Assembly: GCA_021845685.1 (NCBI GenBank)
Contig: JAJZVN010000010.1
Span: 3,096-67,095 of the forward strand
Reading direction: 5' to 3'
Length of the DNA: 64,000 nucleotides
DNA from: a bacterium
Lineage (GTDB): Bacteria; SZUA-79; Acidulodesulfobacterales; Acidulodesulfobacteraceae
The translations under genes were made by a program, and so were the position numbers. Shown piece after piece: positions 40,182 to 63,684 of the stretch (positions within the stretch are counted from its first letter, which is position 1; every line of letters begins with the position of its first letter). A model generated the notes under the pieces. That model saw nothing but the letters and a program-made list of their open reading frames with translations, made no database searches and was not told the DNA's origin.

Positions 40182-40237
40182 TGTAACAAAAATTTAACAT
40201 AATCTTCATCAAATTGTAACATTTCTTTTAGTATAAT
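40182..40237 (+). promoter_or_regulatory. Pho-box-like array plus -10 (upstream of the Pi transporter)
   Basis: TGTAACA (40182), TTTAACA (40193), CTTCATC (40204) and TGTAACA (40215) sit at exact 11-bp phasing. TATAAT at 40232-40237 lies 10 nt after the last box. No -35 element. Confidence 0.55.
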
Positions 40238-40253
40238 ATCCTCATATTAAATA

Positions 40254-40420
40254 TTAACCCAACTCAACTCAACTTCATCGTTTTTATTATTATAAAATTA
40301 TAACCCATTGATATTATTACATTTTATTTTTTATTTTGTAATCCCCATAAACATTTTTGTTGCCCTCATAAATATAGCAATATAAACATGTTGCTGGTAA
40401 TTATGGTGAAGTTGGGTTAA
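40254..40420. mobile_element. MITE family 2, copy c
   Basis: ttaacccaactcaactcaacttcatcg ... ggtgaagttgggttaa. Inserted between the Pho-box promoter and the transporter start codon. Confidence 0.7.
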
Positions 40421-40449
40421 AAATAACAGTTAAAATAAAATAAATTAAG

Positions 40450-41937
40450 ATGGGAGGATTTATGAATGCAAGTGAAGATTTAAGGAGTGAGTTGCTTCAT
40501 AAGGTAGACGAAGTAGGTCTTGCAAAGCATCATTTTAGAACTATGTTTACGGCAGGCATGGGTTTTTTTACTGATGCGTACGATTTATTTATTATAGGGG
40601 TTACTATAGCTCTGCTGACTCCTATATGGCATCTGACATCTATTGACATTGCATGGCTCGGCTCCACATCGTTAATAGGTGCTGCTATGGGTGCTTTTGT
40701 ATTCGGGCGGATTTCAGATATTTTTGGAAGAAAAGCTATCTACGGACTTGAAGTAATAATATTAACGATAGCGGCGATAGGTTCAGCTTTCTCTCAGGAT
40801 ATTTTGCAGCTTATAATATGGAGATTTATATTGGGCTTAGGCATAGGCGGCGATTATCCTATAAGCGCTATTATTATGAGCGAGTATTCAAATAGAAAAG
40901 ACAGAGGTAAATTAATAGGTATGGTGTTTTCTCTGCAGGGAATAGGGTTAATAGCAGGTCCTATGGTTGCAATCTTAATATTAATGCTCGGCGTTCCGCA
41001 TGATATTGCATGGAGAATTTTATTAGGGTTAGGTGCAATACCGGCAGCCAGCGTCATTTATCTTAGAAGAAAAATTAAAGAAACGCCGCATTTTTCTCTG
41101 TCTGTTCAAGGAAACGTAGATAATACGGTCGGAGCGATAAATGATATAACCGGGTCAAACATTAAAGTCAATCATGAAAATAGGCAGCAGCAAACAAGGG
41201 TGAAAGCAAAAGCAAAATGGACGGATATTTTAAAATATCCATACAATCTGAGACTTTTAGGAACCATGGGGAGCTGGTTTTTAGTTGACTGGGCATTTTA
41301 CGGAAATTCAATTTCATGGCCACTCGTCATGAAATCGTTTCTTCCGCACGCAACATTTATACAGGGTTTAGCTTTAGCAACCATTGTTTTTATAGTTTTT
41401 GCCGCCCCGTTTTATTGGATAGCATCCTTTAATTTAGATACTCTTGGAAGAAAATTTATACAGACATTCGGGTTTATCGGCATGGCGTTAGCTTATCTTA
41501 TAATCTCGTTAGTAAGCTTTTCCGGATATACTTTATTACCTGTTGCTTTTATGCTGATATTCGGATTAAGCTATATATTCGTGGAGTTTGGACCGAACAT
41601 GACAACATTTATTTATCCTGCGGAGGTATTTCCGACTTCCATAAGAGGTCTTGGGGACGGTTTGTCAGCTGGAGCGGGTAAAACAGGGGCATTTATCGGA
41701 ACATTTCTTTTTCCTTTGCTTTTAATGACAATAAAGATTCAGGGCACTTTTTTAGTTCTTGCCGTAATTTCGGTAATGGGAGCTATTTTAACGATTGCCA
41801 CCCTGCCTGAAACAAAAAATGTTTCACTGGCAACAGTAAGCGAAGAAAATCAATTTGTAGATGAAGATTCCGAATCTTTAAATATGAAAGGACATTCTGC
41901 AATAAAAGTAAGTACGGTAAAATCAAATAATTTATAA
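40450..41937 (+). CDS. MFS inorganic phosphate:H+ symporter (PHS/Pho84-like family)
   Basis: 495 aa, 12 TM. AGMGFFTDAYDLFIIG and GRISDIFGRK signatures are typical of PHS transporters. An alternative start exists at 40462. Confidence 0.8.
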   Translation: MGGFMNASEDLRSELLHKVDEVGLAKHHFRTMFTAGMGFFTDAYDLFIIGVTIALLTPIWHLTSIDIAWLGSTSLIGAAMGAFVFGRISDIFGRKAIYGLEVIILTIAAIGSAFSQDILQLIIWRFILGLGIGGDYPISAIIMSEYSNRKDRGKLIGMVFSLQGIGLIAGPMVAILILMLGVPHDIAWRILLGLGAIPAASVIYLRRKIKETPHFSLSVQGNVDNTVGAINDITGSNIKVNHENRQQQTRVKAKAKWTDILKYPYNLRLLGTMGSWFLVDWAFYGNSISWPLVMKSFLPHATFIQGLALATIVFIVFAAPFYWIASFNLDTLGRKFIQTFGFIGMALAYLIISLVSFSGYTLLPVAFMLIFGLSYIFVEFGPNMTTFIYPAEVFPTSIRGLGDGLSAGAGKTGAFIGTFLFPLLLMTIKIQGTFLVLAVISVMGAILTIATLPETKNVSLATVSEENQFVDEDSESLNMKGHSAIKVSTVKSNNL

Positions 41938-42117
41938 GTTATGTTTGTTATATTATAAGAATATATTTAAAAGTTCAAAAATTAAATTTGATAAAGAAGA
42001 TTATTAATTTATTAAATTTTGAAAGTGAGAAAATAAAGAACGTGAAAATTATCAAATTTAATTTATAAGTCGTATAAATATTTTTATAAGCTATTATAAC
42101 TATAAGATATTTTTTAA

Positions 42118-42164
42118 CAGCGGTTAAATAAATAATTAAAATTTATTTAACCGCTGTTTTTTTA
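42118..42164 (+). terminator. rho-independent terminator after the Pi transporter
   Basis: cagcggttaaataaat ... atttatttaaccgctg, followed by T7. Confidence 0.75.
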
Positions 42165-42313
42165 ATTTTTTTTGTCTCCAAGTAAATAATAAAAAAATAC
42201 GGAACATATCTGATAAGCCGCTTATGACAACAAGCTTGTCTTTAGCTTCATATAATTAATAAAACAATCCAAAACATACCTGATATTATATTTTGATATG
42301 ATTATAATAATAT

Positions 42314-42368
42314 TGTAACAAAAATTTAATCTAATCGTCATTATAATGAAATATTAATTATATATAAT
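42314..42368 (+). promoter_or_regulatory. Pho-box-like array plus -10 (upstream of 42586-43670 operon)
   Basis: TGTAACA (42314), TTTAATC (42325), CGTCATT (42336) and TGAAATA (42347) at 11-bp phasing. TATAAT at 42363. Confidence 0.5.
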
Positions 42369-42585
42369 ATAGATATTATTATAAAAGAAAAAAAGGTATA
42401 GCTAAGAATTTTATAAATTTTTTATAGAACGGCAAATTAGTTAATGCATTAGCAATTAAAAATTAAAGATTACGCCTTTAGGATTTATTATTATAAGTTT
42501 CCAATAAATTTGAACTTATTTTAAATTAAGTTAAATAGATTGTTATTAAATTTAAAATAATTAAATTTATGTAAGGAGGTTAAAA

Positions 42586-42924
42586 ATGGATAGCGAAGAA
42601 TTGAAGAATTTAAATAATGATTTGAATTTTAATAAGTTAGACGATAATTTTAATAATGCAAATTCACAAATTGAAAGAATAATGAAAAAAATTTCTAATA
42701 ATGCAATTTTAATAAAAAATAAATATTTAGGTATGATTAAAAATAAAATAAATAAATCTCCAAAAGGAGAAGCGGTAATGGATATGTCATGCGGATGCGG
42801 AGATTCATCTTTTTCTGTTATAGTTACGGAAAAAGACATTGAAAAGATTTATGCTAAATTTGATAAAAAATGTTCTTTTTGCAATGATTTTATAAAAATA
42901 AAATTTATTGTGAAAGAAAATTAA
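42586..42924 (+). CDS. hypothetical small protein with CGCG and CxxC-like cysteines
   Basis: 112 aa. A strong AAGGAGG RBS lies 7 nt upstream. Probably co-transcribed with the PHP gene 23 nt downstream. Confidence 0.5.
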   Translation: MDSEELKNLNNDLNFNKLDDNFNNANSQIERIMKKISNNAILIKNKYLGMIKNKINKSPKGEAVMDMSCGCGDSSFSVIVTEKDIEKIYAKFDKKCSFCNDFIKIKFIVKEN

Positions 42925-42947
42925 ATTTACGTATCGTCATAAAAGTT

Positions 42948-43670
42948 ATGCTAAAAAAAAATTACGCCAAATCCGATACTCATATTCATACAAGTTATAG
43001 CGACGGTTTAAATTCCCCAGAAGAAATTGTAAATGCTGCAAGCGGAAATTTAAATGTTATTGCGATAACAGATCATAACAGAATTAAAGGGGCATACAAA
43101 GCGAAAGAATATGCGGGGAAAAACCGTCATTTAGGGGTGGATGTTATAATAGGCGAAGAAATATCAACAAAAAACGGACATGTAATAGGACTTTTTATAA
43201 AAGATAAAATTATTCCGGGCAAAACCGCTCAAGAAACTATTGACGAAATACATAAACAAGGCGGACTTGCTATATGTCCTCATCCGTATTATCTTATTTC
43301 GTATAAAGAAAAGGGTAATAAACCATTGCGAAAATTATTAGGTTTGCTTAATTTTGATGCCATTGAAGTTATAAATAATTCAAGCATATGTGCCTTTTTC
43401 TATAATGCTTTATCTTCTCTTGCGAATGCTTCGGTCGGTCTTCCCGCATTAGGGGTATCCGATGCCCATTCTAAAGAATTTATAGGAAAAGGTTTTACAA
43501 AATTTGAAGGAAAAAACGCCGAAGATTTTAAAAATATGATAATTAAAAATAAAGTAACCGCACATTTTAAAAATTATTCTTTTAAGGATATCAATAAACA
43601 ATTATTACATTCTTTTAAATCTTTTTATTATTATTATATGAACGATATTAATGATATTAATGACAAATAG
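42948..43670 (+). CDS. PHP-domain metal-dependent phosphoesterase
   Basis: 240 aa. DTHIHTSYSDG, AITDHN, CPHP, and SDAHS motifs. Confidence 0.75.
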   Translation: MLKKNYAKSDTHIHTSYSDGLNSPEEIVNAASGNLNVIAITDHNRIKGAYKAKEYAGKNRHLGVDVIIGEEISTKNGHVIGLFIKDKIIPGKTAQETIDEIHKQGGLAICPHPYYLISYKEKGNKPLRKLLGLLNFDAIEVINNSSICAFFYNALSSLANASVGLPALGVSDAHSKEFIGKGFTKFEGKNAEDFKNMIIKNKVTAHFKNYSFKDINKQLLHSFKSFYYYYMNDINDINDK

Positions 43671-43820
43671 ATAATATAGGTGTTTTCCCGCCTGACTTGG
43701 TCCAAGAATTGCGATTATTTGCCAGAACTTTAAGCTTTTTGGAGCAGTCTGTTTCGTGGTCAGCATCGCCTTGACAAAATCATCTTGACAAATATGTACG
43801 GTATATTTTATATTACATAG

Positions 43821-44243
43821 ATGATAAAGTATTTTTTGAATAAAAAATATAAGGTTTTTCTATTTTTTCCTCTTGCCGCTATTGCGATTTTTTATCTAAT
43901 CGGGGCTACCGAAATAAGCTATATGTTTAATGCTCCAATGATAATGACCCCAATGCAAGTCGGAATGCCTATGCAGATGGGTCAGACAATAGGAAAGTCG
44001 GTAAAAGGGATGGAAAAAACAGCTTTGCTATTTCCATCAAAAATCAATCCACGTCATTTCAATAAGTTAAATTTACAATCTTACGTAACTTGCGTAGAAT
44101 GTCAGAATTTACCTACCGCTTATTATTACCCCGTAATATTTTATTACGGTAGTTTTATTAGAACAATCTTGTTTACAGGAAAGATATATAGGAAACATTT
44201 TTCTTCCGATATACCCCATCCCCCTCAAAACCCTCTTATTTAA
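43821..44243 (+). CDS. hypothetical membrane-anchored Met-rich protein (uncertain)
   Basis: 140-aa ORF with an N-terminal TM, then MFNAPMIMTPMQVGMPMQMGQ (8 Met in 21 aa). The 3' half runs through a hairpin (ccgtaat/attacgg, ~44141-44159), so the real product may be shorter or absent. Confidence 0.3.
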   Translation: MIKYFLNKKYKVFLFFPLAAIAIFYLIGATEISYMFNAPMIMTPMQVGMPMQMGQTIGKSVKGMEKTALLFPSKINPRHFNKLNLQSYVTCVECQNLPTAYYYPVIFYYGSFIRTILFTGKIYRKHFSSDIPHPPQNPLI

Positions 44244-44279
44244 TCGAACATCAATCTTTTGCTTTGTTTTGTTATTACT

Positions 44280-44420
44280 CATTGCTAGCGTAGCGGACAG
44301 ACGGAATCCAGCAGGAGGAAGCGCGTCTTTCGCACTAACTCCGGCGAAGCTCACCAACGTTTTATCGCGCAGCAAAGCGAGCAATCTACCTTGAGATTGT
44401 TTATGTTTTACCATATATGT
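44280..44420. other. GC-rich island C upstream of cusC (possible leader RNA or MITE-related relic)
   Basis: About 50% GC. 5' attgctagcg can pair with either of two tandem 3' segments (gcgcagcaa / agcgagcaat). Internal agacg/cgtct helix. A 3' hairpin caatct/agattg is followed by a T-rich tract. Shares motifs with 39264-39300 and 60790-60905. Confidence 0.25.
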
Positions 44421-44556
44421 TTGTTTTTATATCTGTATCTAAAGCATAGGCATATAGTTATTGTTCGGCGTGCAGATTAAAAATTAATTAACATAATTAA
44501 ATTAAAATAAGAAAAAATTACTCCAAATTTAAAAATTTAAAGGAGATTTATTTGTA

Positions 44557-45876
44557 ATGGAAAAAGTAAAGATAAAAATATTGCGTATAGCATTTTTTTT
44601 GATGATTCTGATATCAGTATCTATGATATCTATGATTTTTTCAATGCCAAAAGGTTTTTCAGCCGAGCTAATTAAGAAAAAACCTCATTTTGATGCGGTC
44701 GTATTGCCGTTAAAATTTCTTATTAAAAAAGCTTTAAAAAATCCGGAAATAAAATCAAGCATATATCAATACTTGGGATATAAAGAAAATATAACAATAG
44801 TAAAGAGCCTTCCCGAGCCTGCGGTAGGATTCGGAATGACTGATGCTAACGGGTTTAATAATCCGCAGATAGGCATTAATTCAATGAGCTACTGGAAATT
44901 TAGCGCATCGCAGGCAATACCGTTTCCCACTAAATTATTTATAAATAGCAAAATCAAGAAATCCATATATAAATCATTGAAAGATAAAACTATTTCTTTA
45001 AAACTTTTTACTATTTTAAATATCAAAGATGTTTATTACAATCTTGCTTTATTAGAAAAAGATATAAAAACTTTTAAAGAAAACCTTACGCTTATTAATC
45101 TGCTGTTAAAATATGCCGACAGAAATTATGCAAGCGGCAGATCAAACGCAAGAGGTCCTATGAGAATCATTTTAGAGATTGATCAAATAAAAACTAAGTT
45201 AATCTTATTTAAAAAACAAAAAAATAAATTTGTATATATATTGTCAAAATTTACGGAGCTTCCGATAAAATATTTTAAAAATAAAAAAGCTGAATTTATG
45301 GGAAAAGTTATGCCTTTAAAATATCAATTTAATAATCTTATGAAAACAGCGGATAAATTAAATCCTGATTTAAAAGAAGGAAAAGAAAATATTAAAACTT
45401 CCCTGCTCGGCATAGACCTGGCAAATCAAGGATATTATCCAAATTTTTCTGTATTTTTAGGCTATGGAGACAGATATTCGCTTCAACCTGTTATATCAGG
45501 CGGCGTATCAATTACTTTGCCTTTATATTTTAATGAAAGTCAGATTCCAAAAATAAACAAGGCAAAAAAATATAATATTAATACTATTTATAAATATGCA
45601 TGGATACGATTAAAAACCGTTCAAGATTTAAAGACTGCCGTAAGCAATATAAAAAATGATTATAAAGTTTACGTCATCAATAAAAATATAACCGAACCCG
45701 AAGCAAAACTCTTATTCAATTCGTATACCAAAAGTCTTATGTCGGGCAAGGCACAGACATTTCCTTTGTTGAACAGTTTTGTCCAATTGCTTTTGATAAG
45801 ACTTAAAACTTATGCATACAAAGCCGAATATTTTAAGGATGATGCTTTTTTAGAGGCGGTTATAGGAAAAAATTAA
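44557..45876 (+). CDS. cusC: outer-membrane efflux protein (TolC/CusC family)
   Basis: 439 aa with a signal peptide. First gene of a three-gene RND heavy-metal efflux cluster. Confidence 0.7.
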   Translation: MEKVKIKILRIAFFLMILISVSMISMIFSMPKGFSAELIKKKPHFDAVVLPLKFLIKKALKNPEIKSSIYQYLGYKENITIVKSLPEPAVGFGMTDANGFNNPQIGINSMSYWKFSASQAIPFPTKLFINSKIKKSIYKSLKDKTISLKLFTILNIKDVYYNLALLEKDIKTFKENLTLINLLLKYADRNYASGRSNARGPMRIILEIDQIKTKLILFKKQKNKFVYILSKFTELPIKYFKNKKAEFMGKVMPLKYQFNNLMKTADKLNPDLKEGKENIKTSLLGIDLANQGYYPNFSVFLGYGDRYSLQPVISGGVSITLPLYFNESQIPKINKAKKYNINTIYKYAWIRLKTVQDLKTAVSNIKNDYKVYVINKNITEPEAKLLFNSYTKSLMSGKAQTFPLLNSFVQLLLIRLKTYAYKAEYFKDDAFLEAVIGKN

Positions 45877-46047
45877 CGGTTTAATTTTTTATTAATATTT
45901 AATTAATTTGAATTTAATCGTTTTGTATATAATTGCATATAAAAAAATTATTAATTTATATAAATTAATAATTATAGTTAAACAATTAAACAATTAAACA
46001 GTAGATATAAATTTTATAAAAATAATAATAAAGACAGAGGATATATT

Positions 46048-47223
46048 ATGAAAAAAATGATTTATATAGCAGGTCTGATTATAACTCTTATAATAGGTAT
46101 TGCGGCATCGGCAGTTTATTTTCAATTTTTTAATTATAAATATAAAAGCAATAATAATAAGCCGCCTAAAAAAATGCCGAAAAAAATGGTAATGCCTTTA
46201 AAAAAAGGAATTTTTGTAAGTTCAAGACAAAGGCAGCTTTACGGGATAACCGTAGGCACGGTTAAATACATAAAAATAAGCCCTGTCATAAGATCAATCG
46301 GCGAATTGAAGATAGCAGAACCGCTTATTAAAAAAATATCATTAAGATATAGCGGATATATAACAAAGCTGTATGCAAACAAAACCGGAATGAAAATATA
46401 TGTCGGCGATAAATTGTTTAGGATTTACAGCCCGTCTATTTTTAACGCAGAAAAAAATCTTTTTTTAGCTTATAAAAATTATAAAAATGCTAAGAAATCA
46501 AATTATAAATTTAGTATTGCGGAAAGCAAAAGTTATTACAGAGCTGCCGAAAAAAGGCTTAAGCTATACGGAGGTATATCAAAAAAGCAGATAAAAGAAA
46601 TAAAAGACGGTATTTATACAAAATCCGATATTGTTATTTATTCAAATTTGTCAGGCATTTTATTAAAAAAATATGTATATTCCGGGCAGCATTTTACTAA
46701 AGGGCAGACATTATTTAAATTAGCGGGGTTAAATACATTATGGATGAATATATCTATTTATGGAAGCGATTTAAAATTTGTCAATAAAGACAGCAATGTA
46801 TCAGTTGAATTTTCAGCTTACCCCGGAAAAATTTTTAACGGAAAAGTATCATTTATATATCCGTATTTAAAATCTCACGCAAGGGTTACGGAAGCAAGAA
46901 TTGTTTTTAATAATAGACAAGGACTATTGCATCCTGGTATGTTTGGAAACGCTGAATTAATAATGAAACCGATGCATAAATTGTCGATAAAATCATCTTC
47001 GGTTTTATGGACAGGGACTGAGCCGGTTGTTTTTATATATAACGGCAAAGGTTATTTTGCGTCGAAAAAAGTTGTTCTGGGCAAAAGATGGGGCAATTAT
47101 TATCCTGTAATAAGCGGTTTAAAAGCAGGAGAAAGAATTGTAACCTCCGGTACTTTTTTGATTTCATCCGATGCAAACTTGAAACAGTCGGTTAATTCAA
47201 TGGCAGGTATGCCTGGTATGTAA
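46048..47223 (+). CDS. cusB: RND efflux periplasmic adaptor (CusB-like)
   Basis: 391 aa. N-terminal Met cluster KKMPKKMVMP, with membrane-fusion beta-barrel and lipoyl-like regions. Confidence 0.8.
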   Translation: MKKMIYIAGLIITLIIGIAASAVYFQFFNYKYKSNNNKPPKKMPKKMVMPLKKGIFVSSRQRQLYGITVGTVKYIKISPVIRSIGELKIAEPLIKKISLRYSGYITKLYANKTGMKIYVGDKLFRIYSPSIFNAEKNLFLAYKNYKNAKKSNYKFSIAESKSYYRAAEKRLKLYGGISKKQIKEIKDGIYTKSDIVIYSNLSGILLKKYVYSGQHFTKGQTLFKLAGLNTLWMNISIYGSDLKFVNKDSNVSVEFSAYPGKIFNGKVSFIYPYLKSHARVTEARIVFNNRQGLLHPGMFGNAELIMKPMHKLSIKSSSVLWTGTEPVVFIYNGKGYFASKKVVLGKRWGNYYPVISGLKAGERIVTSGTFLISSDANLKQSVNSMAGMPGM

Positions 47224-47258
47224 TATAAATAAATATTAAATTTTGAGGTTTATATATA

Positions 47259-50603: not shown

Positions 50604-50692
50604 ATATTAAATAATTAATTGGTTTAAAAATATTCATCAAAATTTAAATATAAAAAAGCTCTTTCTTTCATGCTATAGGCTATAATAGTATA

Positions 50693-50780: not shown

Positions 50781-51287
50781 CTAACGTATGAAATGAAGCG
50801 CAATTATAATAGTTAACATAATGCTTAAAAAGCCTAATGTCAACTTGGTGTTGAAATTAATTTTATCATTTAAAGCGTCAATCTTTTTATCTAACATTTC
50901 AAACTTTGTTTCAAATTTATTATCTAAAGCATCAATCTTTTTATCTAACATTTCAAACTTTGTTTCAAATTTATTATCTAAAGCATCAATTCTAACATTA
51001 AGTTCTGCTCTAACCGAATCAATTTTTTTATCTAATATTTCAAACTTTGTTTCAATTTTCTCATTCAAAGCATCAATCCTAACATTAAGTTCTGCTCTAA
51101 CCGAATCAATCTTTTTATCTAATATTTCAAACTTAAAGTTAATTGTAGTATCTAAGCCGGCTAATTTAGTATCAACTTTTTCAAATCTTGCGACAATGTA
51201 TTTTTCTTGATTGTCAAATCTTGAATCAAAATATTTTTCGGCAGATACGGAAAATTCCATAATTTCTTCCTTTGCTTGATTTTGCAT
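50781..51287 (-). CDS. tail-anchored coiled-coil protein built from tandem repeats
   Basis: 168 aa. The motif F-E-(I/M)-L-D-K-K-I-D recurs four times. Underlying DNA is two 54-bp units (50878-50985) and an 87-bp unit repeated about 1.7 times (50986-~51135). Single C-terminal TM. Confidence 0.55.
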   Translation of the reverse strand: MQNQAKEEIMEFSVSAEKYFDSRFDNQEKYIVARFEKVDTKLAGLDTTINFKFEILDKKIDSVRAELNVRIDALNEKIETKFEILDKKIDSVRAELNVRIDALDNKFETKFEMLDKKIDALDNKFETKFEMLDKKIDALNDKINFNTKLTLGFLSIMLTIIIALHFIR

Positions 51288-51505
51288 TCTTAATTATCTC
51301 CTTATAATTATATCATTAATTTTTTAAAGCAATTAAAAAAAAATTATATAATATAATTATTAAAGAATTATGAAGGAAATATTAAAAATTGATTAAATTT
51401 TTATCAAAGTATGTATTATGTTCTAACTGAACACCCATTACGGAAATTACTGGACGCCCTCTTCCGTCCCGGTTTTTTTAGTTTTTAGACGGAGTTATAA
51501 AATAC

Positions 51506-54615: not shown

Positions 54616-54753
54616 ATGTTTATTTAAATGATAAAGAACATTTAATTAATAATTAAAACAATTAAAAAAAATTTTTAAAATAAATGAAATTAGTGAATGT
54701 TACACAGATTACTAAATCATCATACAACGAACTAAGGAGTGTTAATTTATAAT

Positions 54754-54873
54754 ATTAAGAAATCAATTTCTAATTTTTAATTGTTAATTTTTAAACTGTG
54801 CCTTCAAATTGTGTTAATTTATATTATTAAGTTATTAAGAAATCAATTTCTAAATTAAGAAATCAATTTCTAA
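54754..54873 (+). repeat. three copies of a 20-bp palindrome-containing motif upstream of arsC
   Basis: attaagaaatcaatttctaa occurs at 54754, 54834 and 54854, with core dyad AGAAAT-CA-ATTTCT. Flanking gtgttaatttat is also duplicated (54739, 54811). Confidence 0.75.
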
Positions 54874-54956
54874 GATATAGAATATAAATAATTTAAAAAT
54901 CAATAAAATAACTAAGAATTTTAAATAAAATTTTAAATTAAAAATTGAGGTAAATT

Positions 54957-55391
54957 ATGAATATTATTTTTATATGTACGGGAAATTCTGCAAGATCACA
55001 AATGGCAGAAGGATTTGCTAAATTTTACGGTGAAAAATACAAAATAGCTGATTTAAATATATCCAGCGCAGGCGTTAATCCAAAGCCGGTTAATCCTTTC
55101 GCTATAGGTGTTATGTTTGAGAAAAATATAGACATAAGCAAGCAAAAATCAAAATCTGTGGATGTTTTTGATTTAAATACTTTTGATTATGTAATAACTC
55201 TTTGCGGCGATGCAAGAGATAATTGTCCGTTAATTACTTCAAACAATATAAAGCTGCACTGGGATTTAATTGACCCTGCAGGCGTTATCGGAGATAATGA
55301 TGATAAATTAAAAGCTTTCAGGGCGGTAAGAGACGAAATTGAAGAAAGAATTGCAGCATTATTGAAAGAAAAATATAAAATAATCAAATAA
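54957..55391 (+). CDS. arsC: arsenate reductase, LMW-PTPase/thioredoxin-coupled type
   Basis: 144 aa. CTGNSARSQMAEG P-loop and the C-X6-C pair (LCGDARDNCP). Confidence 0.85.
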   Translation: MNIIFICTGNSARSQMAEGFAKFYGEKYKIADLNISSAGVNPKPVNPFAIGVMFEKNIDISKQKSKSVDVFDLNTFDYVITLCGDARDNCPLITSNNIKLHWDLIDPAGVIGDNDDKLKAFRAVRDEIEERIAALLKEKYKIIK

Positions 55392-55539
55392 GTTCAAACA
55401 ATATTTGCCCTCCGTAATATCTTGAATATCCTGAATATTCCAACCGTCCTGTAATATTTTAAGCATATAAGCTGTAATTTATTTAAAATTATCGTTCAAT
55501 AACTTAATCCGATACAATTATTTACAATTATTACAAAAC

Positions 55540-55608
55540 CGTAACAAAACCTTAATAAATATTTAACAATTCTGTAATAAAACCTTAACATCAATGTGCT
55601 AATATAAT
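55540..55608 (+). promoter_or_regulatory. Pho-box-like array plus -10 (upstream of the phosphoesterase gene)
   Basis: CGTAACA (55540), CTTAATA (55551), TTTAACA (55562), TGTAATA (55573), CTTAACA (55584) and TGTGCTA (55595), all at 11-bp phasing. TATAAT at 55603. Confidence 0.5.
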
Positions 55609-55654
55609 AAGAAAAATATATATAAAATATATAAAGGAAGAGGTCTATTTATAA

Positions 55655-55772
55655 ATTGCAGTAATAGTAACTTAAAAAACCGTTTATTTATTTATTTATT
55701 AATTGATTTGTTAATTAGCAGCAATAGTAGCTTAAAAACCATTTATTTATATTTATTAATTAATTAATTTAG
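55655..55772 (+). repeat. ~60-bp tandem direct repeat x2 in the phosphoesterase leader
   Basis: attgcagtaatagtaacttaaaaaaccgtttattta... is repeated as attagcagcaatagtagcttaaaaaccatttattta... Confidence 0.7.
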
Positions 55773-55878
55773 TTATTAAATTTAAATAATTTACTAATTA
55801 AATAAATTAACGCAATGCAATATTAGATATATACTGGCTATAGTCTATATTATTGGTTTAATTAAAATTAATTTTAAT

Positions 55879-57072
55879 ATGGAGTTTATCATGAATAGAA
55901 GAGATTTTATAAAAATTGGAGCCGCTGGTTTATTAGGCAGTGTTGTAGCCGATAATTTAATTACAAAAAATGCGAATGCCAAAATGAATGACGCTGAAAC
56001 CGATACGGCTAAATCAAAATTTAAAAAACCGGAGCATGTAGTTTTAATAATGCAGGAAAACAGAAGTTTTGACCATTATTTCGGTATGATGGACGCTACT
56101 ATAAACGGTCAGCCGAAAAGGGTATTAGAACTCGGTATAACGGATGGCATGGGCGGAAGCATTAAACCGTATAATCTCGGATTTCAGTATGTAACCCCGA
56201 ATCATGTTGACCCCAATCACTCATGGAAAGCATTGCACACCATTTATAATAAAGGGAAAATGGACGGTTATTTTTTAAACGGGATCAATCAGCCTACAGA
56301 CGATTATAAAGTAATAATGGGTTATTACGACACAAAAAAAGCGCTTACTCCTTATTATTATTACGCAAAAAATTATACGCTATGCCAGAATTATTTTCAT
56401 TCTATAATGGCTCCTACCCAGCCCAACAGGCTTTACCAGATTGCAGCGCAATCCAACGGACATATAACGGATATGAAACCAAAAAAGCCGTATGAATTTC
56501 CTACTATTTTTAACAAGCTTGAAGAGGCTAAAATTTCATGGAAGATATATGTTGAAGGCTGGCCTCATCCTGAAAAGTATATTCACCATTGGGTTCCAGT
56601 TATATGGTTTAAAAGCTTTCTGAAAGATAAAAACTTATGGAATAAAATAAGACCTGCGGCAGAATATTTTGAGGATATTAAAAAAGGAACTCTGCCAAAG
56701 TTTAGCTGGCTTGTGCCTGACTTTAAACATTCGGAACACCCGCCCGCAGACGTAAAGACAGGAATGATTTATACTGTAAGGAGAATTGAGGCGTTAAGGA
56801 AAAGTCCGCTGTTTTCAAAATCGGTAATATTTTTAAACTGGGATGAATGCGGAGGATTTTATGACCATGTTGTACCGCCGATTGTTGATTATTATGGTCT
56901 TGGATTAAGAGTAGGATGTATTATAATTTCTCCTTTTGCGAAAAAAGGCTATATTTCTAATGTAAGACATGAGCATACATCCATACTTAAATATGTTGAA
57001 AACTTATGGGGAATAGACCCTTTGACCGACAGGGATAAATACGCAAACGGTTTTGAAGATGTTTTTATTTAA
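55879..57072 (+). CDS. Tat-exported phosphoesterase (phospholipase C / acid phosphatase AcpA family)
   Basis: 397 aa. Twin-arginine signal [24 protein letters not shown] is the phosphoesterase family signature. Confidence 0.8.
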
Positions 57073-57108
57073 CTTCTTATCGGCAATTTAATTTATAGTT
57101 ATAAGTTG

Positions 57109-57163
57109 TGTTACAAAAATTTAACTTAATCGTCATAATAATGCAACAATAAATAAGTATAAT
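57109..57163 (+). promoter_or_regulatory. Pho-box-like array plus -10 (upstream of exbB-exbD-tonB)
   Basis: TGTTACA (57109), TTTAACT (57120), CGTCATA (57131) and TGCAACA (57142) at 11-bp phasing. TATAAT at 57158. Confidence 0.5.
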
Positions 57164-57267
57164 AAATAAATAAATAAATTATTAAATTTTTAGTTTATAA
57201 CTTATAACAAAGTGTAAGTTTAAAAATAAAGCAATAATATAACGATAATTATTAATAAGGAGGAAAA

Positions 57268-58017
57268 ATGAATTTAAATTATATAGTTCACATTGCTTCA
57301 GTTTCAGGAGGCGTACTATATCTTATTATGATAGTGCTTCTTGTTGCTTTAGCCGTAATCATTGAGCGCACCTGGTATTTAAACAAAATAATTAACAAAG
57401 GGTATGAAATAACCTCAAAAGTGTCCGAGCTTAAGACAATAGACAATAAAATCCTAACGGAGCTTGTATCTTCATCCGACAATATACCGCAGTCTAAAGT
57501 TTTAAATATTGCTCTAAAATTTCCCGAAGTAAGAAGTCATGACCATTTAGACAGACTGATTGAAGAGGAAATATTATGGCAATCTCCGTCAATTGACAAA
57601 AGACTCTGGATTTTAGATTCAATTGTAACTTTAGCTCCGCTTTTAGGTCTTTTAGGCACAATTATAGGCATGTTTACAGCATTTTCTGTCTTAGGGGCGC
57701 CGGGCAGCGCTCCGCTTAAAGTTACAGGCGGTGTTGCCGAGGCGTTAGTCACAACAGGAGCAGGTTTATTCGTTGCCATTATCGGTCTCGTATTCTATAA
57801 CGGTTTGAATAACTGGGCGCGTCTAATTATTCACCAAATGGAAACAATTAAAATAATGTTAGTTAATCGTTTAGAAAGACCATGCACAAAAGGCGACAAA
57901 GAATTAACTGATATTGGGTTAAGTCACAGTAAGGCAGCTGAAAAAGGACGCAACGGAAATTCATTAATTAAAAATCCGTTTCCCGTTAAAGGGGAAGGGG
58001 AGGTTGTAAATGGGTAG
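57268..58017 (+). CDS. exbB: MotA/TolQ/ExbB proton-channel protein
   Basis: 249 aa, 3 TM. APLLGLLGTIIGM and GGVAEAL motifs, with a C-terminal extension. Confidence 0.85.
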   Translation: MNLNYIVHIASVSGGVLYLIMIVLLVALAVIIERTWYLNKIINKGYEITSKVSELKTIDNKILTELVSSSDNIPQSKVLNIALKFPEVRSHDHLDRLIEEEILWQSPSIDKRLWILDSIVTLAPLLGLLGTIIGMFTAFSVLGAPGSAPLKVTGGVAEALVTTGAGLFVAIIGLVFYNGLNNWARLIIHQMETIKIMLVNRLERPCTKGDKELTDIGLSHSKAAEKGRNGNSLIKNPFPVKGEGEVVNG

Positions 58018-58414
58018 TTACAGTTATATGAATGGGGGAAGCAAAAAAGCAAAGATAGTTATTATTCCTATGATTGACATAATGCTGTTTTTAGTGGTTT
58101 TTTTTGCACTAATAATGTTAAGAATGATACCATCTTCAGGAATAGCTTCGCAAATTCCTCATGCAAGCGCCGTGCAAGAAATGCCGCACCCTAAAGTGCT
58201 CATATCTCTTTTTAAAAACGGCACTATAAAGGTGAAAGGAAAGGTTTTAACGTTAAACGAACTTGTATCTTTGCTTAGAAGTCAAAATCCGAAAAAAACA
58301 GTAGTGACTATAGCAGGTTCAAAAAAAGTGTCGCTTCAGCATCTTGTTTCGGTAATGAGCGCTTGTAAAAAAGCGGGCGTAAGTAAAATAGGCATTGCTG
58401 CTTCGAGGTCTTAA
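58010..58414 (+). CDS. exbD: biopolymer transport protein ExbD/TolR
   Basis: 134 aa. IIPMIDIMLFLVVFF is the TM with the conserved Asp. Overlaps the exbB stop. Confidence 0.8.
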   Translation: MGSYSYMNGGSKKAKIVIIPMIDIMLFLVVFFALIMLRMIPSSGIASQIPHASAVQEMPHPKVLISLFKNGTIKVKGKVLTLNELVSLLRSQNPKKTVVTIAGSKKVSLQHLVSVMSACKKAGVSKIGIAASRS

Positions 58415-59149
58415 ATGGAAGATTATATTAATAATTCATCTTTTAATAATAACAGTCATAATGACGGCTACAATAAGATTCCCTTCGGTTATGCAATACT
58501 TTTAGGCGCTGTTTTAGAGCTTGTGCTGGTTGCAGCTGCGATATTAATATTGTCTCATATGCCTAAATATGTGCCGATACCTCAACAAAAGCCTATAATG
58601 ATATCGCTTGCAGCTATCCCTACGCCTCCAAAGCCTATAGTTAAGCCTAAACCAAAGCCTACGCCTCCGAAGCCGAGACCTGTCGTTAAACCTAAGCCTA
58701 CGCCAATACCGCACCCTAAGCCTCATGTCGTAAAGCATGTCGCTCAAAAAGTTTTTAAAGCAGTACATGTAAAAAACGTTCCGCCGTCGCCGGCAGTTCA
58801 TGAAATAGTACCGCCGTCACCAAGACCGGTGCCAGTCGTCGAACACGGTCCTATTAATCCGTCTCTTATAGCAATGCTTACTGGAGAGATAAGACAAAAA
58901 ATTAAGTCATCCCTTGTGTATCCTTCTGCGGCTAAAGCTATGCGTATGCAGGGTAAAGTCAAGGTTCTCTTCACATACTATAACGGTGTAATCAGTAAGA
59001 TAAAAATAATTCGCGCCTCCCAATTTTCTTTATTAAACAGCGGTGCAATTAAAACACTTGAATTGGCTAATTATCCATTGCCGCCTAAAAAACTCAGAAA
59101 TAGAATATTACAGTTCAGCATATGGATAAGATTTAAGTTGCATAGATAA
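58415..59149 (+). CDS. tonB: energy transducer TonB
   Basis: 244 aa. N-terminal TM, a Pro/Lys-rich spacer (KPKPKPTPPKPRPVVKPKPTP), and a C-terminal TonB domain (YPSAAKAMRMQGKVKV). Confidence 0.8.
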   Translation: MEDYINNSSFNNNSHNDGYNKIPFGYAILLGAVLELVLVAAAILILSHMPKYVPIPQQKPIMISLAAIPTPPKPIVKPKPKPTPPKPRPVVKPKPTPIPHPKPHVVKHVAQKVFKAVHVKNVPPSPAVHEIVPPSPRPVPVVEHGPINPSLIAMLTGEIRQKIKSSLVYPSAAKAMRMQGKVKVLFTYYNGVISKIKIIRASQFSLLNSGAIKTLELANYPLPPKKLRNRILQFSIWIRFKLHR

Positions 59150-59371
59150 GTTGCATAGATAAATAAATAAATAGATAAAATAAATAGATAAATAGATAAC
59201 AGGTAAAATAAACAAAATAAAAACAAAATAAATTTAATTGATAATAAATGAAATGGGAAGAAAGATAGAAAGATAGATATAGATATAGATGATATAGATA
59301 TATAAAATATTATATAAAATATTTAAAATTTAATATTATATTAATATTAATTAAATTATTTAAATCTTTAG

Positions 59372-59812
59372 TTGAAAGTAAAAACTGGAAGTGATTTATT
59401 TATGAAATTTATGAAATTTAAAAAAACTAATATGAAAATAATTATTGTATTTTCAGCAATATTATTTGTTAGTTCTATTTTTAGCGGCTGTGCATATTAT
59501 GTTAAACCTACACCGCCGCCTTTAGCTTTATCTGAAATAATTAAGCTATGCAAAGAACGCGTACCGAATGAAACGATAATAAAAAAAATTAGAGCCTCTC
59601 ATGAAGTGTTTTATTTAACTGCAAGGGAAATAATTAAGCTTCATAGAGACGGGATAACAGCAATAGTCCTTGACTATATGCTAAAAACAGGCATAAGAAA
59701 AAAACAGCATCGTGCATTACAAAGAGGCTATCAGTTAAGACCGCATTATTGGATGTGGTATAACTGGCAATGGGCGCCTTATGCCCCTTACCCTTATTTT
59801 TATCCATATTAA
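59372..59812 (+). CDS. hypothetical lipoprotein with aromatic-rich C-terminus
   Basis: Lipobox FSGC. The likely start is the ATG at 59402. C-terminal HYWMWYNWQWAPYAPYPYFYPY. Confidence 0.45.
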   Translation: MKVKTGSDLFMKFMKFKKTNMKIIIVFSAILFVSSIFSGCAYYVKPTPPPLALSEIIKLCKERVPNETIIKKIRASHEVFYLTAREIIKLHRDGITAIVLDYMLKTGIRKKQHRALQRGYQLRPHYWMWYNWQWAPYAPYPYFYPY

Positions 59813-59905
59813 AATAAAAATATTAAAGAATTACAACAATTATTAAATTAAATTAAAACATTAAAGAATTACAACAATTATAAAATATAAAATATAAAAT
59901 TAAAA

Positions 59906-59965
59906 TAAATTAAATTAAATTAAATTAAATTAAATTAAAATAAAATAAAATAAAATAAAATAAAA
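59906..59965 (+). repeat. pentanucleotide microsatellites (TAAAT)6 and (TAAAA)6
   Basis: Two perfect adjacent tracts end 5 nt before the AGGAGGG RBS of the TPR gene. Confidence 0.85.
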
Positions 59966-59980
59966 AAACAGGAGGGCAAT

Positions 59981-60736
59981 GTGCAAAAATCGTATTTAAA
60001 TTTGGTTTCGTTATGTTATGCCGTATTTTCTTTGGCAGCGGTTTTAGGGCTTTCAATAATTTTATTTCAAACGCCGGCTTATGCAGTTTCAAAATGGCAG
60101 CTAAATTATAACAAAGCAGTGGGATTTTTAAAAATAAAAAAATATAATTCGGCTCTAAAATTCGCAAAAATATCTCTTAAAGAAAATAAAAATCCTTACA
60201 CGCTTCAGTTGAACGGCAATATCCTTCAATTTTTAAAAAAATATAAAAAAAGCAATTATTATTTTAAAAAATCCCTTGCTTTAATTATAACCAGAGTAAA
60301 TAAAAAAGGCAGTACTAGTAAAAAAACAGACAATTTTATAAAAATTATAAAGAATAATATTGGAGTAAATTATCTTTTAGCAGGAAACAGGCAATTAAAA
60401 AAGAAAAATATTAAAGATGCGATTAATAATTATAAAAAAGGTTTAGCATTTGCCAATAAGAAACATTTAACAGATGATTTAATGATTAACGCCGCTATCA
60501 GCTATGAGAATATTAATAAATTCAAACCTGCAATTTATTATTCAAAAAAAGTTGTCGCAAATAGTCCAAAAAATGCATTCGGCTATTTTGTTAAAGGCAG
60601 AGCAGAGTATGGACTAAATGAACTTAATCTGTCTATTGCAGACCTTAAAACAGCCGTTAAACTCTCGCCTTCCGATAAATTGTTTAAAAGTGCGCTTAAA
60701 TTAGTTGAAAAAAAGAAAAATGCAAAGAAATATTAA
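59981..60736 (+). CDS. TPR-repeat protein with signal peptide
   Basis: 251 aa, GTG start after AGGAGGG. Several 34-aa TPR-like repeats. Last gene of the exbB-tonB cluster. Confidence 0.6.
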   Translation: MQKSYLNLVSLCYAVFSLAAVLGLSIILFQTPAYAVSKWQLNYNKAVGFLKIKKYNSALKFAKISLKENKNPYTLQLNGNILQFLKKYKKSNYYFKKSLALIITRVNKKGSTSKKTDNFIKIIKNNIGVNYLLAGNRQLKKKNIKDAINNYKKGLAFANKKHLTDDLMINAAISYENINKFKPAIYYSKKVVANSPKNAFGYFVKGRAEYGLNELNLSIADLKTAVKLSPSDKLFKSALKLVEKKKNAKKY

Positions 60737-60870
60737 GATGAAATAAATAAGAAATTTTCTATCTTTACCTAAAATTGCCGAACTTTTTAATAACTTTTTT
60801 AATAACTATAGATGATCGCTTCGCTCCCGGCTTATAGCCTCATGAACAGAAACGGCGTGCGTTTCTGCAT

Positions 60871-60905
60871 CGTAACCTTCCTGCTTTCGCTGGAATGACA
60901 CCCCA
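60871..60905. mobile_element. partial MITE family 1 core
   Basis: ccttcctgctttcgctggaatgacacc matches the family-1 core. It is preceded by about 80 bp of GC-rich sequence that includes the hairpin cagaaacg/cgtttctg. Confidence 0.5.
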
Positions 60906-60930
60906 GCAATAATTTATTTTATTACAAAAA

Positions 60931-60995
60931 TGTAACATTATTGTAATAATATTTAACAATTCTGTAATAAATATGTAACATTAAATTGATATAAT
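60931..60995 (+). promoter_or_regulatory. Pho-box-like array plus -10 (upstream of the TonB-dependent receptor)
   Basis: TGTAACA (60931), TGTAATA (60942), TTTAACA (60952), TGTAATA (60963) and TGTAACA (60974). TATAAT at 60990. The tataatatcctca stretch is shared with the 40232 promoter. Confidence 0.55.
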
Positions 60996-61037
60996 ATCCT
61001 CAAAATATAATTATAAGTAAAAAATGGAGGAAAAAAA

Positions 61038-63470
61038 ATGGAGAAATTAAAACATGCATCATATCAAAGGAGGACTAAACTGCCGGACATTAGAATAATT
61101 ATCGGCATATTTATTCTAACTATGATATTTGCAGTTTATGGGCTTACCCCAAATGCTGAAGCTGGGGTAATTTCAATTAAAGCAATCACAAAAAAAGTAA
61201 AGGTTAAAAGAACGCCGTTTACGGTTTCAAAGATTAAAAAGAAAACTATTAAAAGAATGACAAATCCCATGACCAGCTTTGAAACTCTTTTAAATGTAGC
61301 TCCGTCAATCCACGCCAGCACGGGCGGACCTAATAATGCCAGGGCAAGAGTTGAGTTAAGAGGGTTTGGTACTGGAGAAGTATCTCAAACTTTTGACGGG
61401 ATACCCATTAACAACATGTTTGACGGCGATTCATCCAATTATATGGACGTCAGAAATAATATTCCTTTTACGCTGGGAGATGTTTCCGGCGTTAATATCA
61501 GCTACGGCGTCAATAACCCGAGCGTGGATACTTTTGATTCCTTAGGCGGTCAAATAGGTTATGAGCCTGTTATGCCCTCAAGTAAATTTAGCGCCTCAAT
61601 ATTTGGCGGATACGGTTCTTTTGCCACTAGGACTTACGGTTTTTCTTTAAATACCGGCAAGCTCTGGGAAGGCATAAGAATGTATTTAAGGGTTGAACAC
61701 AACGACGCAAACAACTGGTATGACGGTTCAAGCTATCCCAACAGAGACCATTCATACTATATGTCTTTAATAAAACCTTATAACAGGGGCAGGTCGCATA
61801 TTAGTTTAATTTATATGAGAAACGACGATTACGCAAATAACCCGCATCTCGTCCCGGTTGCACTTCTTAATCAGTTCGGATACAACTGGGGATGGCCGGC
61901 TTCAGTTGAAAATACACAGGCTTATAATCAGGAGTATTATGTAATATTGGGATGGAAAGATTACATGAACAGGCATTTTACATTCGACAATAAAACTTTC
62001 TACTCCCAAGACGATGAGTATAAAAATCTTTATATTAATCCTGCATGCGAAAAAATTGCCGGAACATATAATATTGATACTTCGCAATGCTCAATTCCTT
62101 CGAGCATATTTGTTAATGGGGTGCAGCCGTATAATCTGGGGTTTAACAGTTTTCCCAATAAAGCCACTCCATCGACCCCTCAAGGCAAAACAGATACTTA
62201 TTTAACCCAATTTGCCAATGCAGGGTTAGCTTATGCAACCGATAATCACATTAAAGCGGTTTCTCTTACGCAGTATGGTGATTACCCAACGTTTATAATC
62301 AAACTACCAAGAAATATAGTTACTTTAGGCGCGCAGTTAAATTTTGGAAATTTTCATAAAACGGAAGGGGTTGGCAGTACTGCGTTTGCACCCATTATTC
62401 TTTCGTATAATGCTATCAATGATTTGAGGGGCAGTGAATCTATGGATGCTTTATACGCTCAGGATAGGTTCAGCATTATACCTCATAAATTATTTCTTGA
62501 GCCGGGCGTTAAATATCAATATGTAAATGAAAGTATTTCTTCAAATGCTGTTTATAACGATCCATATGGCGGACAGGTTTCAGATAATTTTACCGAAATA
62601 GAGCCGACTGTCGGATTGAGCTATAATTTATTGCCAAACTGGAACTTTTATGCAACTTACGGAAGAACTATGAAAGCTCCAAACTATACCGATTATCTAA
62701 CAACTATTAATAGCTTTGGACTAAATTCAGGAGTTTTTACGTATGCAACGCCGATAAGTACATTAAAACCGGAAATAGTTACGGATTATGAATTAGGAAC
62801 AAGATACAGACTTCAAAATCTCGAACTCTCAGCCAATATTTACAAAGAAGATTTTACTCATACGTTTGGCACATATTCAAGCGATGTAGGTGGCATCCGC
62901 ACATCATATGAGTATAATGGCGGCGCCTCTACGTATACGGGATTTCAGATAGAAGCTCAGTATAATATCAATAAGAATTTAAATATTTATGGCAATTATT
63001 CTCTAAATACAGGAAAATATGACAGCACTTTCATAAGTAAGGCATCTGGACTTGGCGGCGCAAGTATGATATCAGGAGAAAATGTTCCATTTATTCCAAG
63101 GCACTTGGCGAACATAGGCATTGACGAAAATTATTTAAACATTAACGGAAATTTATCAGGAACTTATACAGGTGAGCAGTTTGTTACAGATTTAAACGGA
63201 AACCCGACAAGTTCTTATCATCTCGGCGGATACTGGCTGTTTAATTTAAATTTAAGCCATAAGTTTAATTTTAGAAACATACCGTTTTTTAAAGAAGCTG
63301 ACTTAAAAAGCATGAAACTCAGTTTTACGGTAGACAATATATTCAATAGAAATTATCTTGAAGGGGCAATACCGGGGTTTGTAAACACGACAAATTCAGG
63401 TACATTTTATGCGGAATATATGCCCGGTATGCCAAGGTTTTACTACGTGTCAACTTCATTTAAATTCTAA
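61038..63470 (+). CDS. TonB-dependent outer-membrane receptor
   Basis: 810 aa. Signal peptide, a plug domain (ELRGFGTGEVSQTFDGIPIN), a beta-barrel, and a terminal aromatic residue (...STSFKF). Confidence 0.85.
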   Translation: MEKLKHASYQRRTKLPDIRIIIGIFILTMIFAVYGLTPNAEAGVISIKAITKKVKVKRTPFTVSKIKKKTIKRMTNPMTSFETLLNVAPSIHASTGGPNNARARVELRGFGTGEVSQTFDGIPINNMFDGDSSNYMDVRNNIPFTLGDVSGVNISYGVNNPSVDTFDSLGGQIGYEPVMPSSKFSASIFGGYGSFATRTYGFSLNTGKLWEGIRMYLRVEHNDANNWYDGSSYPNRDHSYYMSLIKPYNRGRSHISLIYMRNDDYANNPHLVPVALLNQFGYNWGWPASVENTQAYNQEYYVILGWKDYMNRHFTFDNKTFYSQDDEYKNLYINPACEKIAGTYNIDTSQCSIPSSIFVNGVQPYNLGFNSFPNKATPSTPQGKTDTYLTQFANAGLAYATDNHIKAVSLTQYGDYPTFIIKLPRNIVTLGAQLNFGNFHKTEGVGSTAFAPIILSYNAINDLRGSESMDALYAQDRFSIIPHKLFLEPGVKYQYVNESISSNAVYNDPYGGQVSDNFTEIEPTVGLSYNLLPNWNFYATYGRTMKAPNYTDYLTTINSFGLNSGVFTYATPISTLKPEIVTDYELGTRYRLQNLELSANIYKEDFTHTFGTYSSDVGGIRTSYEYNGGASTYTGFQIEAQYNINKNLNIYGNYSLNTGKYDSTFISKASGLGGASMISGENVPFIPRHLANIGIDENYLNINGNLSGTYTGEQFVTDLNGNPTSSYHLGGYWLFNLNLSHKFNFRNIPFFKEADLKSMKLSFTVDNIFNRNYLEGAIPGFVNTTNSGTFYAEYMPGMPRFYYVSTSFKF

Positions 63471-63644
63471 AAAATATAAATATAATTAAATTTTAATGAT
63501 ATAAAATATAATTAAATTTAAATGATAATAGATTAATCTAATTAATTTTTAAAATATCAAAAAAGAGCTCGGCAGATAATGTTTTATTATTTGTTGAGCC
63601 CTTTTTAATTTTTTTATATCTCACCTTTTGGACATATTTTCGAT

Positions 63645-63684
63645 TATTACAAAATTTTAACAGAAGTTTAACCCTGTTGTAATA
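63645..63684 (+). promoter_or_regulatory. Pho-box-like array (upstream of the gene starting at 63982)
   Basis: TATTACA (63645), TTTAACA (63656), TTTAACC (63667) and TGTAATA (63678) at 11-bp phasing. The -10 is less clear. Confidence 0.4.

Follow-up and report, generated by a model that had tools for sequence, protein, structure and literature searches.

Phased TGTAACA-type repeats with Pho-box architecture upstream of phosphate-acquisition and TonB-system genes in a Candidatus Acididesulfobacter genome

Repeat arrays and the promoters they adjoin

The DNA considered here is a 64-kb window (the whole stretch that was analyzed) from Candidatus Acididesulfobacter, an acid-mine-drainage bacterium, and the elements in question are six arrays of short direct repeats of the T(G/T)TAACA type. 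An earlier note on this DNA had located six such arrays and taken them for the promoter signature of a putative Pho regulon. When these stretches were read and aligned in an 11-base register, all six arrays were found where the note had placed them, on the + strand. Each is intergenic, in that it lies outside open reading frames (ORFs) of at least 100 amino acids (aa), and each faces the next + strand gene. The arrays are as follows, with some outermost units in parentheses:

Array 1 (A1), 40182..40221, + strand: units at 40182, 40193, 40204 and 40215, reading TGTAACA-TTTAACA-CTTCATC-TGTAACA; score 35.8, and 32.2 with the pstS-only matrix described below
Array 2 (A2), 42314..42353, + strand: units at 42314, 42325, 42336 and 42347, the fourth weak
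Array 3 (A3), 55529..55601, + strand: six to seven units, at (55529), 55540, 55551, 55562, 55573, 55584 and (55595)
Array 4 (A4), 57109..57148, + strand: four units, at 57109, 57120, 57131 and 57142
Array 5 (A5), 60920..60980, + strand: six units, at (60920), 60931, 60942, 60952, 60963 and 60974, with one 10-bp step
Array 6 (A6), 63645..63684, + strand: four units, at 63645, 63656, 63667 and 63678; conserved in the related loci L007 and L008

Each unit consists of a conserved heptamer (TGTAACA, TTTAACA, TGTAATA or CGTCATA) followed by four mostly A/T bases. The units stand head to tail, four to seven per array, in 11-bp phase and with the consensus TGTAACAAAAN; a position matrix built from 29 units gives T-G/T-T-A-A-C/T-A-A-A/T-A-N. 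Start-to-start spacing departs from 11 bp at a single 10-bp step, from 60942 to 60952, exactly as had been claimed. The arrays thus have the form expected of a Pho box, namely at least two direct repeats of 6-7 conserved and 4-5 variable nucleotides with an 11-bp period. All the units listed in the earlier note stand, and only its upper limit of six units per array has to be raised, since A3 and A5 each gain one unit upstream (55529 and 60920). Two pairs of longer strings shared between promoters are likewise real, one at 40232 and 60990 and the other at 55558 and 60948, the latter one base away from the coordinates originally given.

Downstream of each array is a recognizable -10 element:

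A1 -10, TATAAT, 40232-40237, + strand: 10-nt gap after the last heptamer
A2 -10, TATAAT, 42363-42368, + strand: 9-nt gap after the last heptamer
A3 -10, TATAAT, 55603-55608, + strand: 12 nt after the penultimate heptamer
A4 -10, TATAAT, 57158-57163, + strand: 9-nt gap after the last heptamer
A5 extended -10, TGATATAAT (TGn), hexamer at 60990-60995, + strand: 9-nt gap
A6 extended -10, TGTTTTAAT, 63692-63700, with a TTTAAT hexamer at 63695, + strand: 10-nt gap

The TATAAT boxes said to follow the last or penultimate heptamer by 9-12 nt in five of the six arrays can be read in A1-A5. Equally, inspection of the six promoters reveals no -35 hexamer at a spacer of 17±1, in agreement with the earlier description. 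The TTAACA within the penultimate heptamer leaves a spacer of about 20 nt to the -10; this is too far for a -35, so the promoters are best described as -10-only promoters in which the -35 region is taken by the array. Where an array replaces the -35, its proximal unit is expected about 10 bp from the -10, and the distance read here is 9-10 nt (12 nt in A3). Both A2 and A3 include a weak unit that overlaps the -10 itself.

The arrays were scored with the matrix as four consecutive units in 11-bp phase on both strands of the 64 kb. The six arrays score 26.6-37.9, and the next best sites reach 11.9 on the + strand and 21.6 on the - strand. The matrices were also rebuilt with one array left out at a time, a step meant to avoid circularity, and the left-out arrays still score 19.5-33.8. 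For the null model, the intergenic DNA of the window (11.7 kb, 21% GC) was simulated 200 times with an order-3 Markov model, with both strands included. With the leave-one-out matrices, the simulated maxima average about 11 and never exceed 21.6; no simulation reaches the array score for A1-A5, and 2 of 200 do so for A6. Equal frequency of the motif in random AT-rich intergenic DNA, which the earlier note had named as fatal to its proposal, is thus not seen in the simulations, and the six arrays are confirmed to lie far above chance.

Target genes in the window, in relatives and at pstS

The genes and transcription units facing the arrays are the following:

MFS transporter resembling PHS-type phosphate:H+ symporters, 40450..41937, + strand: target of A1; its best family, TIGR00887, scores 313 bits, below the cut-off of 610
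Likely A2 operon, 42586..44243, + strand: the next three genes
112-aa Cys-rich protein (motifs CGC...C..C), 42586-42924, + strand: no family match; first gene after A2
PHP/CehA-McbA-type metallo-phosphoesterase, 42948-43670, + strand: likely in the A2 operon
140-aa protein, 43821-44243, + strand: likely in the A2 operon
AcpA/PLC-family phosphoesterase (PF04185), 55879..57072, + strand: target of A3; twin-arginine signal MNRRDFIK
exbB-exbD-tonB operon, 57268..59149, + strand: target of A4
TonB-dependent outer-membrane receptor (Plug and barrel), 61038..63470, + strand: target of A5
Short terminator-ended unit, 63705..63786, + strand: target of A6; the next gene is of the isochorismatase family (seen in L001)

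Protein family matches confirm the phosphate-related targets that had been recognized by eye: the PHS-like inorganic phosphate (Pi):H+ symporter, the PHP protein and the PF04185 phosphoesterase with its twin-arginine (Tat) signal. The set of array-bearing genes thus includes functions in phosphorus acquisition, to which relatives add a gene neighborhood with CHAD, Ppx and Ppk proteins (see below). No pst or pho regulatory gene is present within the 64-kb window.

To follow these genes into other genomes, species-representative genomes were searched with the AcpA protein, which yielded 21 loci (L007-L027), all from metagenome-assembled genomes of Ca. Acididesulfobacter, Ca. Acidulodesulfobacterium and SZUA-79. 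By AcpA, the closest relative is Ca. A. diazotrophicus AP1 (L007, GCA_004195025.1), at 97% identity. The window matrix, run over the AcpA loci, detects arrays scoring 22-41 upstream of orthologues in about 20 related genomes. Arrays precede genes for AcpA (L007-L011, L014, L017, L019, L021), ExbB (L007, L011, L019), TonB-like proteins (L020, L023, L024 and, outside the AcpA loci, L092, L110 and L119), receptors (L007, L008, L010, L011, L015, L019, L020, L023, L024) and the PHS transporter (L012, L013, L016), as well as the 112-aa family and a protein with a CHAD (polyphosphate-binding) domain. Gene orders differ among these relatives, which indicates that arrays go with particular genes, whatever their surroundings. 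Moreover, a comparison among arrays shows conservation of the heptamers and their phase alone, with divergent spacers and flanks.

In two relatives (L013:1376-1642 and L019:1512-1856), the first gene behind an array encodes a homologue of the 112-aa protein, and this small Cys-rich family is a predicted regulon member, kept in several genera after strong Pho boxes. The second of these loci contains a phosphate island (L019:1-9600). There, a pair encoding an OmpR-family response regulator and a histidine kinase is divergent from the best array, which is followed by the gene for a 114-aa protein homologous to the 112-aa one of the window, and then by CHAD, two Ppx (Ppx/GppA) genes and Ppk1. The island lies directly upstream of AcpA, a TPR gene, a receptor and ExbB, each preceded by an array.

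The pstS promoters of the lineage were reached by two routes. In the first, metagenome contigs were scanned with an exact pattern that specifies about 2.3 units and leaves the fourth unit unspecified. Of the 72 loci obtained, 37 have a four-unit array scoring at least 24. Arrays found in this way precede pstSCAB-phoU in three loci (L090, L094, L095), PstS-like PBP_like_2 genes in five (L062, L091, L096, L114, L122) and an Na/Pi-cotransporter-PhoU gene in one (L068). The second route was independent of the motif: a protein search with the L090 PstS defined a tight clade of 73-91% identity, and the contigs of this clade were scanned. No pstS in L132-L149 lacks an array; the scores are 33-47, and 76-266 bp separate the array from the downstream ATG assigned to pstS. 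Distinct versions of the promoter are represented by L132, L134, L137, L139, L141 and L144, of which L134 shares one assembly (JAKBNN01) with the AcpA locus L010. Named PstS proteins fall among these sequences, those of A. diazotrophicus and A. guangdongensis in cluster P0018 and that of Acidulodesulfobacterium acidiphilum in cluster P0004. The gap from the last heptamer to the -10 in the pstS promoters is 9-10 nt, usually with TGn. Absence of the motif before pst genes elsewhere had been put forward as grounds for giving up the proposal; in the relatives, instead, every pstS promoter retrieved has an array.

The pst locus of AP1 itself (L164, contig SGBB01000006, GCA_004195025.1) has a six-unit array, scoring 46.6, before pstSCAB-phoU. 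This is the same assembly as L007; hence, in a single genome, pstS, AcpA, exbB, the receptor and the array-6 unit all have this motif in front of them. We then took 24 units from six pstS promoters, leaving out all window sequence, to build a matrix that was applied to both strands of the window at a threshold of 10. It matches exactly the six window arrays (21.3-32.2) and nothing else in the 64 kb.

Two further observations concern arrays outside the window. The AP1 pst locus has another array (29.3), at L164:2273-2316, before a 556-aa ORF with no recorded Pfam match; the 556-aa protein is a predicted further regulon member of uncharacterized function. In addition, the four-unit arrays of L062, L068, L091, L096, L114 and L122, all on metagenome contigs, are of nearly the same TGTAACA-N4 type, and this flavor of Pho box may be widespread beyond the phylum.

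A predicted phosphate-starvation regulon

The pstS promoters, the pstS-only matrix and the conservation of arrays with orthologous genes support the earlier reading of these sites as PhoB/PhoP-type promoters. The arrays are very probably Pho boxes, bound by a phosphorylated winged-helix response regulator of the OmpR/PhoB family and marking a phosphate-starvation regulon. From the sequence we infer the identity of that regulator, its binding, activation as opposed to repression, and Pi limitation as the signal.

The E. coli Pho box, the site of PhoB, is CTGTCATA(A/T)A(T/A)CTGTCA(C/T) and lies 10 bp upstream of the -10. Like the arrays, it is built of direct repeats of 7 bp that recur every 11 bp across 4-bp A/T spacers, replaces the -35 at about 10 bp from the -10 and is found at pstS and phosphatase genes. 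TGTAACA agrees with TGTCATA at five of seven positions, and the third units found here (CGTCATA, CTTCATC) are closer still. The systems differ in that the core here is TGTAACA/TTTAACA, in 4-7 units rather than the usual 2-4 of E. coli, and in that the host belongs to an uncultured acidophilic phylum whose candidate regulator falls below the PhoB equivalog cut-off. In B. subtilis, the PhoP core site consists of TT(A/T/C)ACA repeats with a periodicity of about 11 bp. TTTAACA contains the PhoP hexamer TTAACA, and in both cases arrays lie upstream of -10-only promoters with the four or more phased direct repeats needed for two dimers. Here, however, the host is Gram-negative, the targets include TonB, ExbBD and a TonB-dependent receptor, and no secondary binding sites are seen within coding regions.

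The requirement for four or more repeats in the B. subtilis core site is from Liu and Hulett 1998 (cited in PMC2275107). PHO boxes in general consist of 11-nt direct repeat units, with 6 conserved and 5 variable positions, in 2-8 copies, with cooperative binding by dimers of an OmpR/PhoB-family regulator (PMC2275107). General features of the E. coli box are treated in the same paper and in PMC11208175. The PHO boxes of Streptomyces PhoP share with the arrays a modular build from 11-nt units, 2-8 per operator, in which core units are joined by weaker extension units, although the Streptomyces core is GC-rich (GTTCACC) and the core here AT-rich (PMC2275107). The PhoB regulon of Caulobacter crescentus is the nearest in content: it covers pstSCAB, phosphatases or phosphodiesterases and several TonB-dependent receptors, the last thought to import alternative phosphorus sources (PMC11208175). 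Unlike in Caulobacter, the set here takes in a whole exbB-exbD-tonB operon, with a Pho box to itself, and possibly a small RNA. Taken as Pho boxes, the arrays are ordinary ones, in a phylum without an earlier description of them.

In the mechanism that we propose, the tandem arrays would seat regulator monomers head to tail on one face of the helix, as their 11-bp units allow. The promoter-proximal unit, 9-10 nt before the -10 hexamer, would fill the place of the missing -35, so that the bound regulator would recruit RNA polymerase; when phosphate is scarce, the phosphorylated regulator would do so as a class II activator. Within the window, the regulon would then comprise the PHS-type Pi:H+ symporter, the Cys-rich protein with the PHP phosphoesterase, the Tat-exported AcpA/PLC phosphoesterase, a dedicated ExbB-ExbD-TonB energizer, the TonB-dependent receptor and a short terminator-ended transcript.

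A candidate for the regulator is the OmpR-family response regulator that, with its kinase, adjoins the best array in L019. It is 70% identical to its A. diazotrophicus orthologue P0150 (L160), which also has an adjacent kinase. The KEGG orthology (KO) table of Tan et al. 2019 gives each of AP1-AP4 one PhoR (K07636) and one PhoB (K07657), and the excerpt considered has no KO number between K07657 and K07696; by this table, a single OmpR-family pair (P0150) would be the only visible candidate. The P0150-type pair is thus our candidate regulator of the arrays.

Several observations weigh against this interpretation. The candidate response regulator scores 141 bits on TIGR02154 (PhoB), for which the cut-off is 296, and is no clear PhoB equivalog. 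Its best NCBIfam match is MtrA and its best PDB match RegX3; these comparisons do not separate it from MtrA, RegX3 or OmpR. Neither an array nor a phosphate gene stands beside P0150 in A. diazotrophicus (L160). The link to pstS comes from a 97%-identical relative and from the wider order, not from the window's own pst or pho loci. Array 6 is weak, as is a seventh candidate array described below. Finally, three metatranscriptome runs have almost no coverage of the organism or the locus, and one further run is DNA-like.

The most serious alternative keeps the architecture and the winged-helix regulator but makes the signal acid, iron or arsenate stress, with the phosphate genes part of a broader envelope or uptake regulon. 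We consider it improbable. TonB, ExbBD and receptor genes account for three of the six targets, and Tan et al. 2019 annotated the receptors of the Acidulodesulfobacterales group as siderophore importers; however, a Pi symporter, phosphoesterases and, in relatives, a CHAD protein are also targets, and the strongest arrays of the lineage precede pstSCAB-phoU. A search for the Fur box (a 19-bp palindrome) found no site with fewer than five mismatches near exbB or the receptor gene. Sites with five or six mismatches are background in AT-rich DNA, and Fur-regulated TonB and receptor promoters were rejected. An arsR-arsA-arsC operon and an RND efflux operon are located between the arrays, so that the ars genes are flanked by them; still, scans with as few as two or three units reveal no array before the ars, RND or TPR genes of the window. 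The kinase beside the candidate regulator in L019 does resemble the acid-sensing ArsS family (76 bits).

A second alternative, which we regard as slightly less probable still, takes the arrays as repressor operators at which the bound regulator blocks the promoter and expression follows from derepression. The arrays overlap the -35 region and come near the -10, which the weak unit of A2 and A3 covers, and a PHO box in that position can exert negative control (PMC2275107). Against this, promoters with no usable -35 can be expected to fire weakly unless an activator is present, a gap of 9-10 nt before the -10 matches activated Pho promoters, and most PhoB/PhoP targets are activated (PMC2275107). 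Least credible of all is that the arrays are non-regulatory, either mobile-element remnants or phased A-tracts (curved or UP-element-like DNA) with no specific binding protein: repeats resembling miniature inverted-repeat transposable elements (MITEs) abound in the genome, some beside array promoters, and the spacers are A-rich and in helical phase, but it is the heptamers and phase that are conserved while spacers and flanks diverge, the arrays accompany functionally related genes across syntenies and genera, metagenome contigs too have complete arrays ahead of phosphate-uptake genes, and order-3 Markov simulations of AT-rich intergenic DNA do not yield them.

With the arrays read as Pho boxes, the TonB system calls for comment. 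PhoB regulons elsewhere include TonB-dependent receptors together with phosphatases (Caulobacter; PMC11208175), and by analogy the TonB proteins and receptor here would have a role in phosphorus supply. Iron-rich acidic water, in which ferric precipitates remove phosphate, makes direct Pho control of the whole exbBD-tonB operon plausible. A broader proposal is that the Pho regulon extends beyond its classical set, with Pho-box-controlled ExbB-ExbD-TonB and receptors, a small RNA behind array 6 and, as regulator, a divergent OmpR-family protein that is not an orthologous PhoB. We advance this proposal tentatively and think it somewhat more apt to fail than to hold. If it were true, energized outer-membrane import of a phosphorus compound would be a core response in iron-rich acid mine drainage, the receptors published as siderophore importers would be phosphorus importers, and the array-6 small RNA, with its exposed CCCUCUCUCUC stretch, could pair with Shine-Dalgarno regions.

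While the mechanism is textbook, the value of the arrays lies in annotation and ecology. They give Ca. Acidulodesulfobacterales / SZUA-79, an uncultured phylum abundant in acid mine drainage, a regulatory signature that is recognizable in sequence, and the TGTAACA array can be used to read its phosphate-starvation regulon from genomes alone. The TonB system and receptors, once annotated as siderophore uptake, may by the Caulobacter analogy be reassigned to phosphorus scavenging, a role that fits a habitat in which phosphate is lost to ferric precipitates. The arrays also flag conserved regulon members, among them the 112-aa Cys-rich protein, the 556-aa AP1 protein and the possible small RNA.

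The array-6 unit and other features of the window

The features mentioned in this section are:

Terminator-like hairpin of the receptor gene, 63567-63599: lies between the receptor gene and array 6
Weak seventh candidate array, 51354..51397, - strand: four units, upstream of a 168-aa ORF; score 21.6, with 20.4 as the highest simulated value; conserved in L007 and L011
168-aa coiled-coil-like ORF, 50781..51287, - strand: divergent from arsR, downstream of the seventh candidate array

The unit behind array 6 (63705-63786) consists of a CU-rich stretch of about 35 nt, a 16-bp hairpin at 63739-63776 and a U-tract that runs to 63786 (z = -4.6). From the array to the U-tract, the sequence is 93-99% conserved in L007 and L008, and the hairpin contains one compensatory pair, T63742C with A63773G. 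Directly downstream of the unit, the L008 sequence is unrelated. These features suggest a transcript of about 75-80 nt that stands on its own under Pho control and exposes a CU-rich stretch; it may be a small RNA, or with lower probability an attenuated leader. Among the loci compared, the unit is confined to the genus. Rfam models match only a single tRNA in the window, with nothing found in the leaders or the array-6 unit. An 86-aa ORF over array 6 (63538-63798, - strand) was taken as spurious, its translation being the K/N/Y-rich product of AT-rich DNA.

The seventh candidate array is borderline; it was not recovered by the pstS-only matrix.

Other repeats occur around the array promoters. 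A tandem duplication of about 45 bp (agcacaataacatattagttaaattaataatattt...) occupies 40100-40181, immediately 5' of array 1. MITE-like short repeats, about 75-86% alike, are found at 60800-60903, 18541-18753, 29203-29310 and 36323-36494 of the window, and are common to the regions upstream and downstream of pstS in L144/L145 and to L134. This family is dispersed across the order, and Pho promoters often adjoin its copies. In a metagenome run, the summed contig depth is about 4900 at 59862-60055 and about 3500 at 60832-61025, compared with about 200-400 in most bins. Many short contigs stack at about 59925-59970, the site of short tandem repeats, and both depth peaks are repeat or low-complexity elements common to many contigs.

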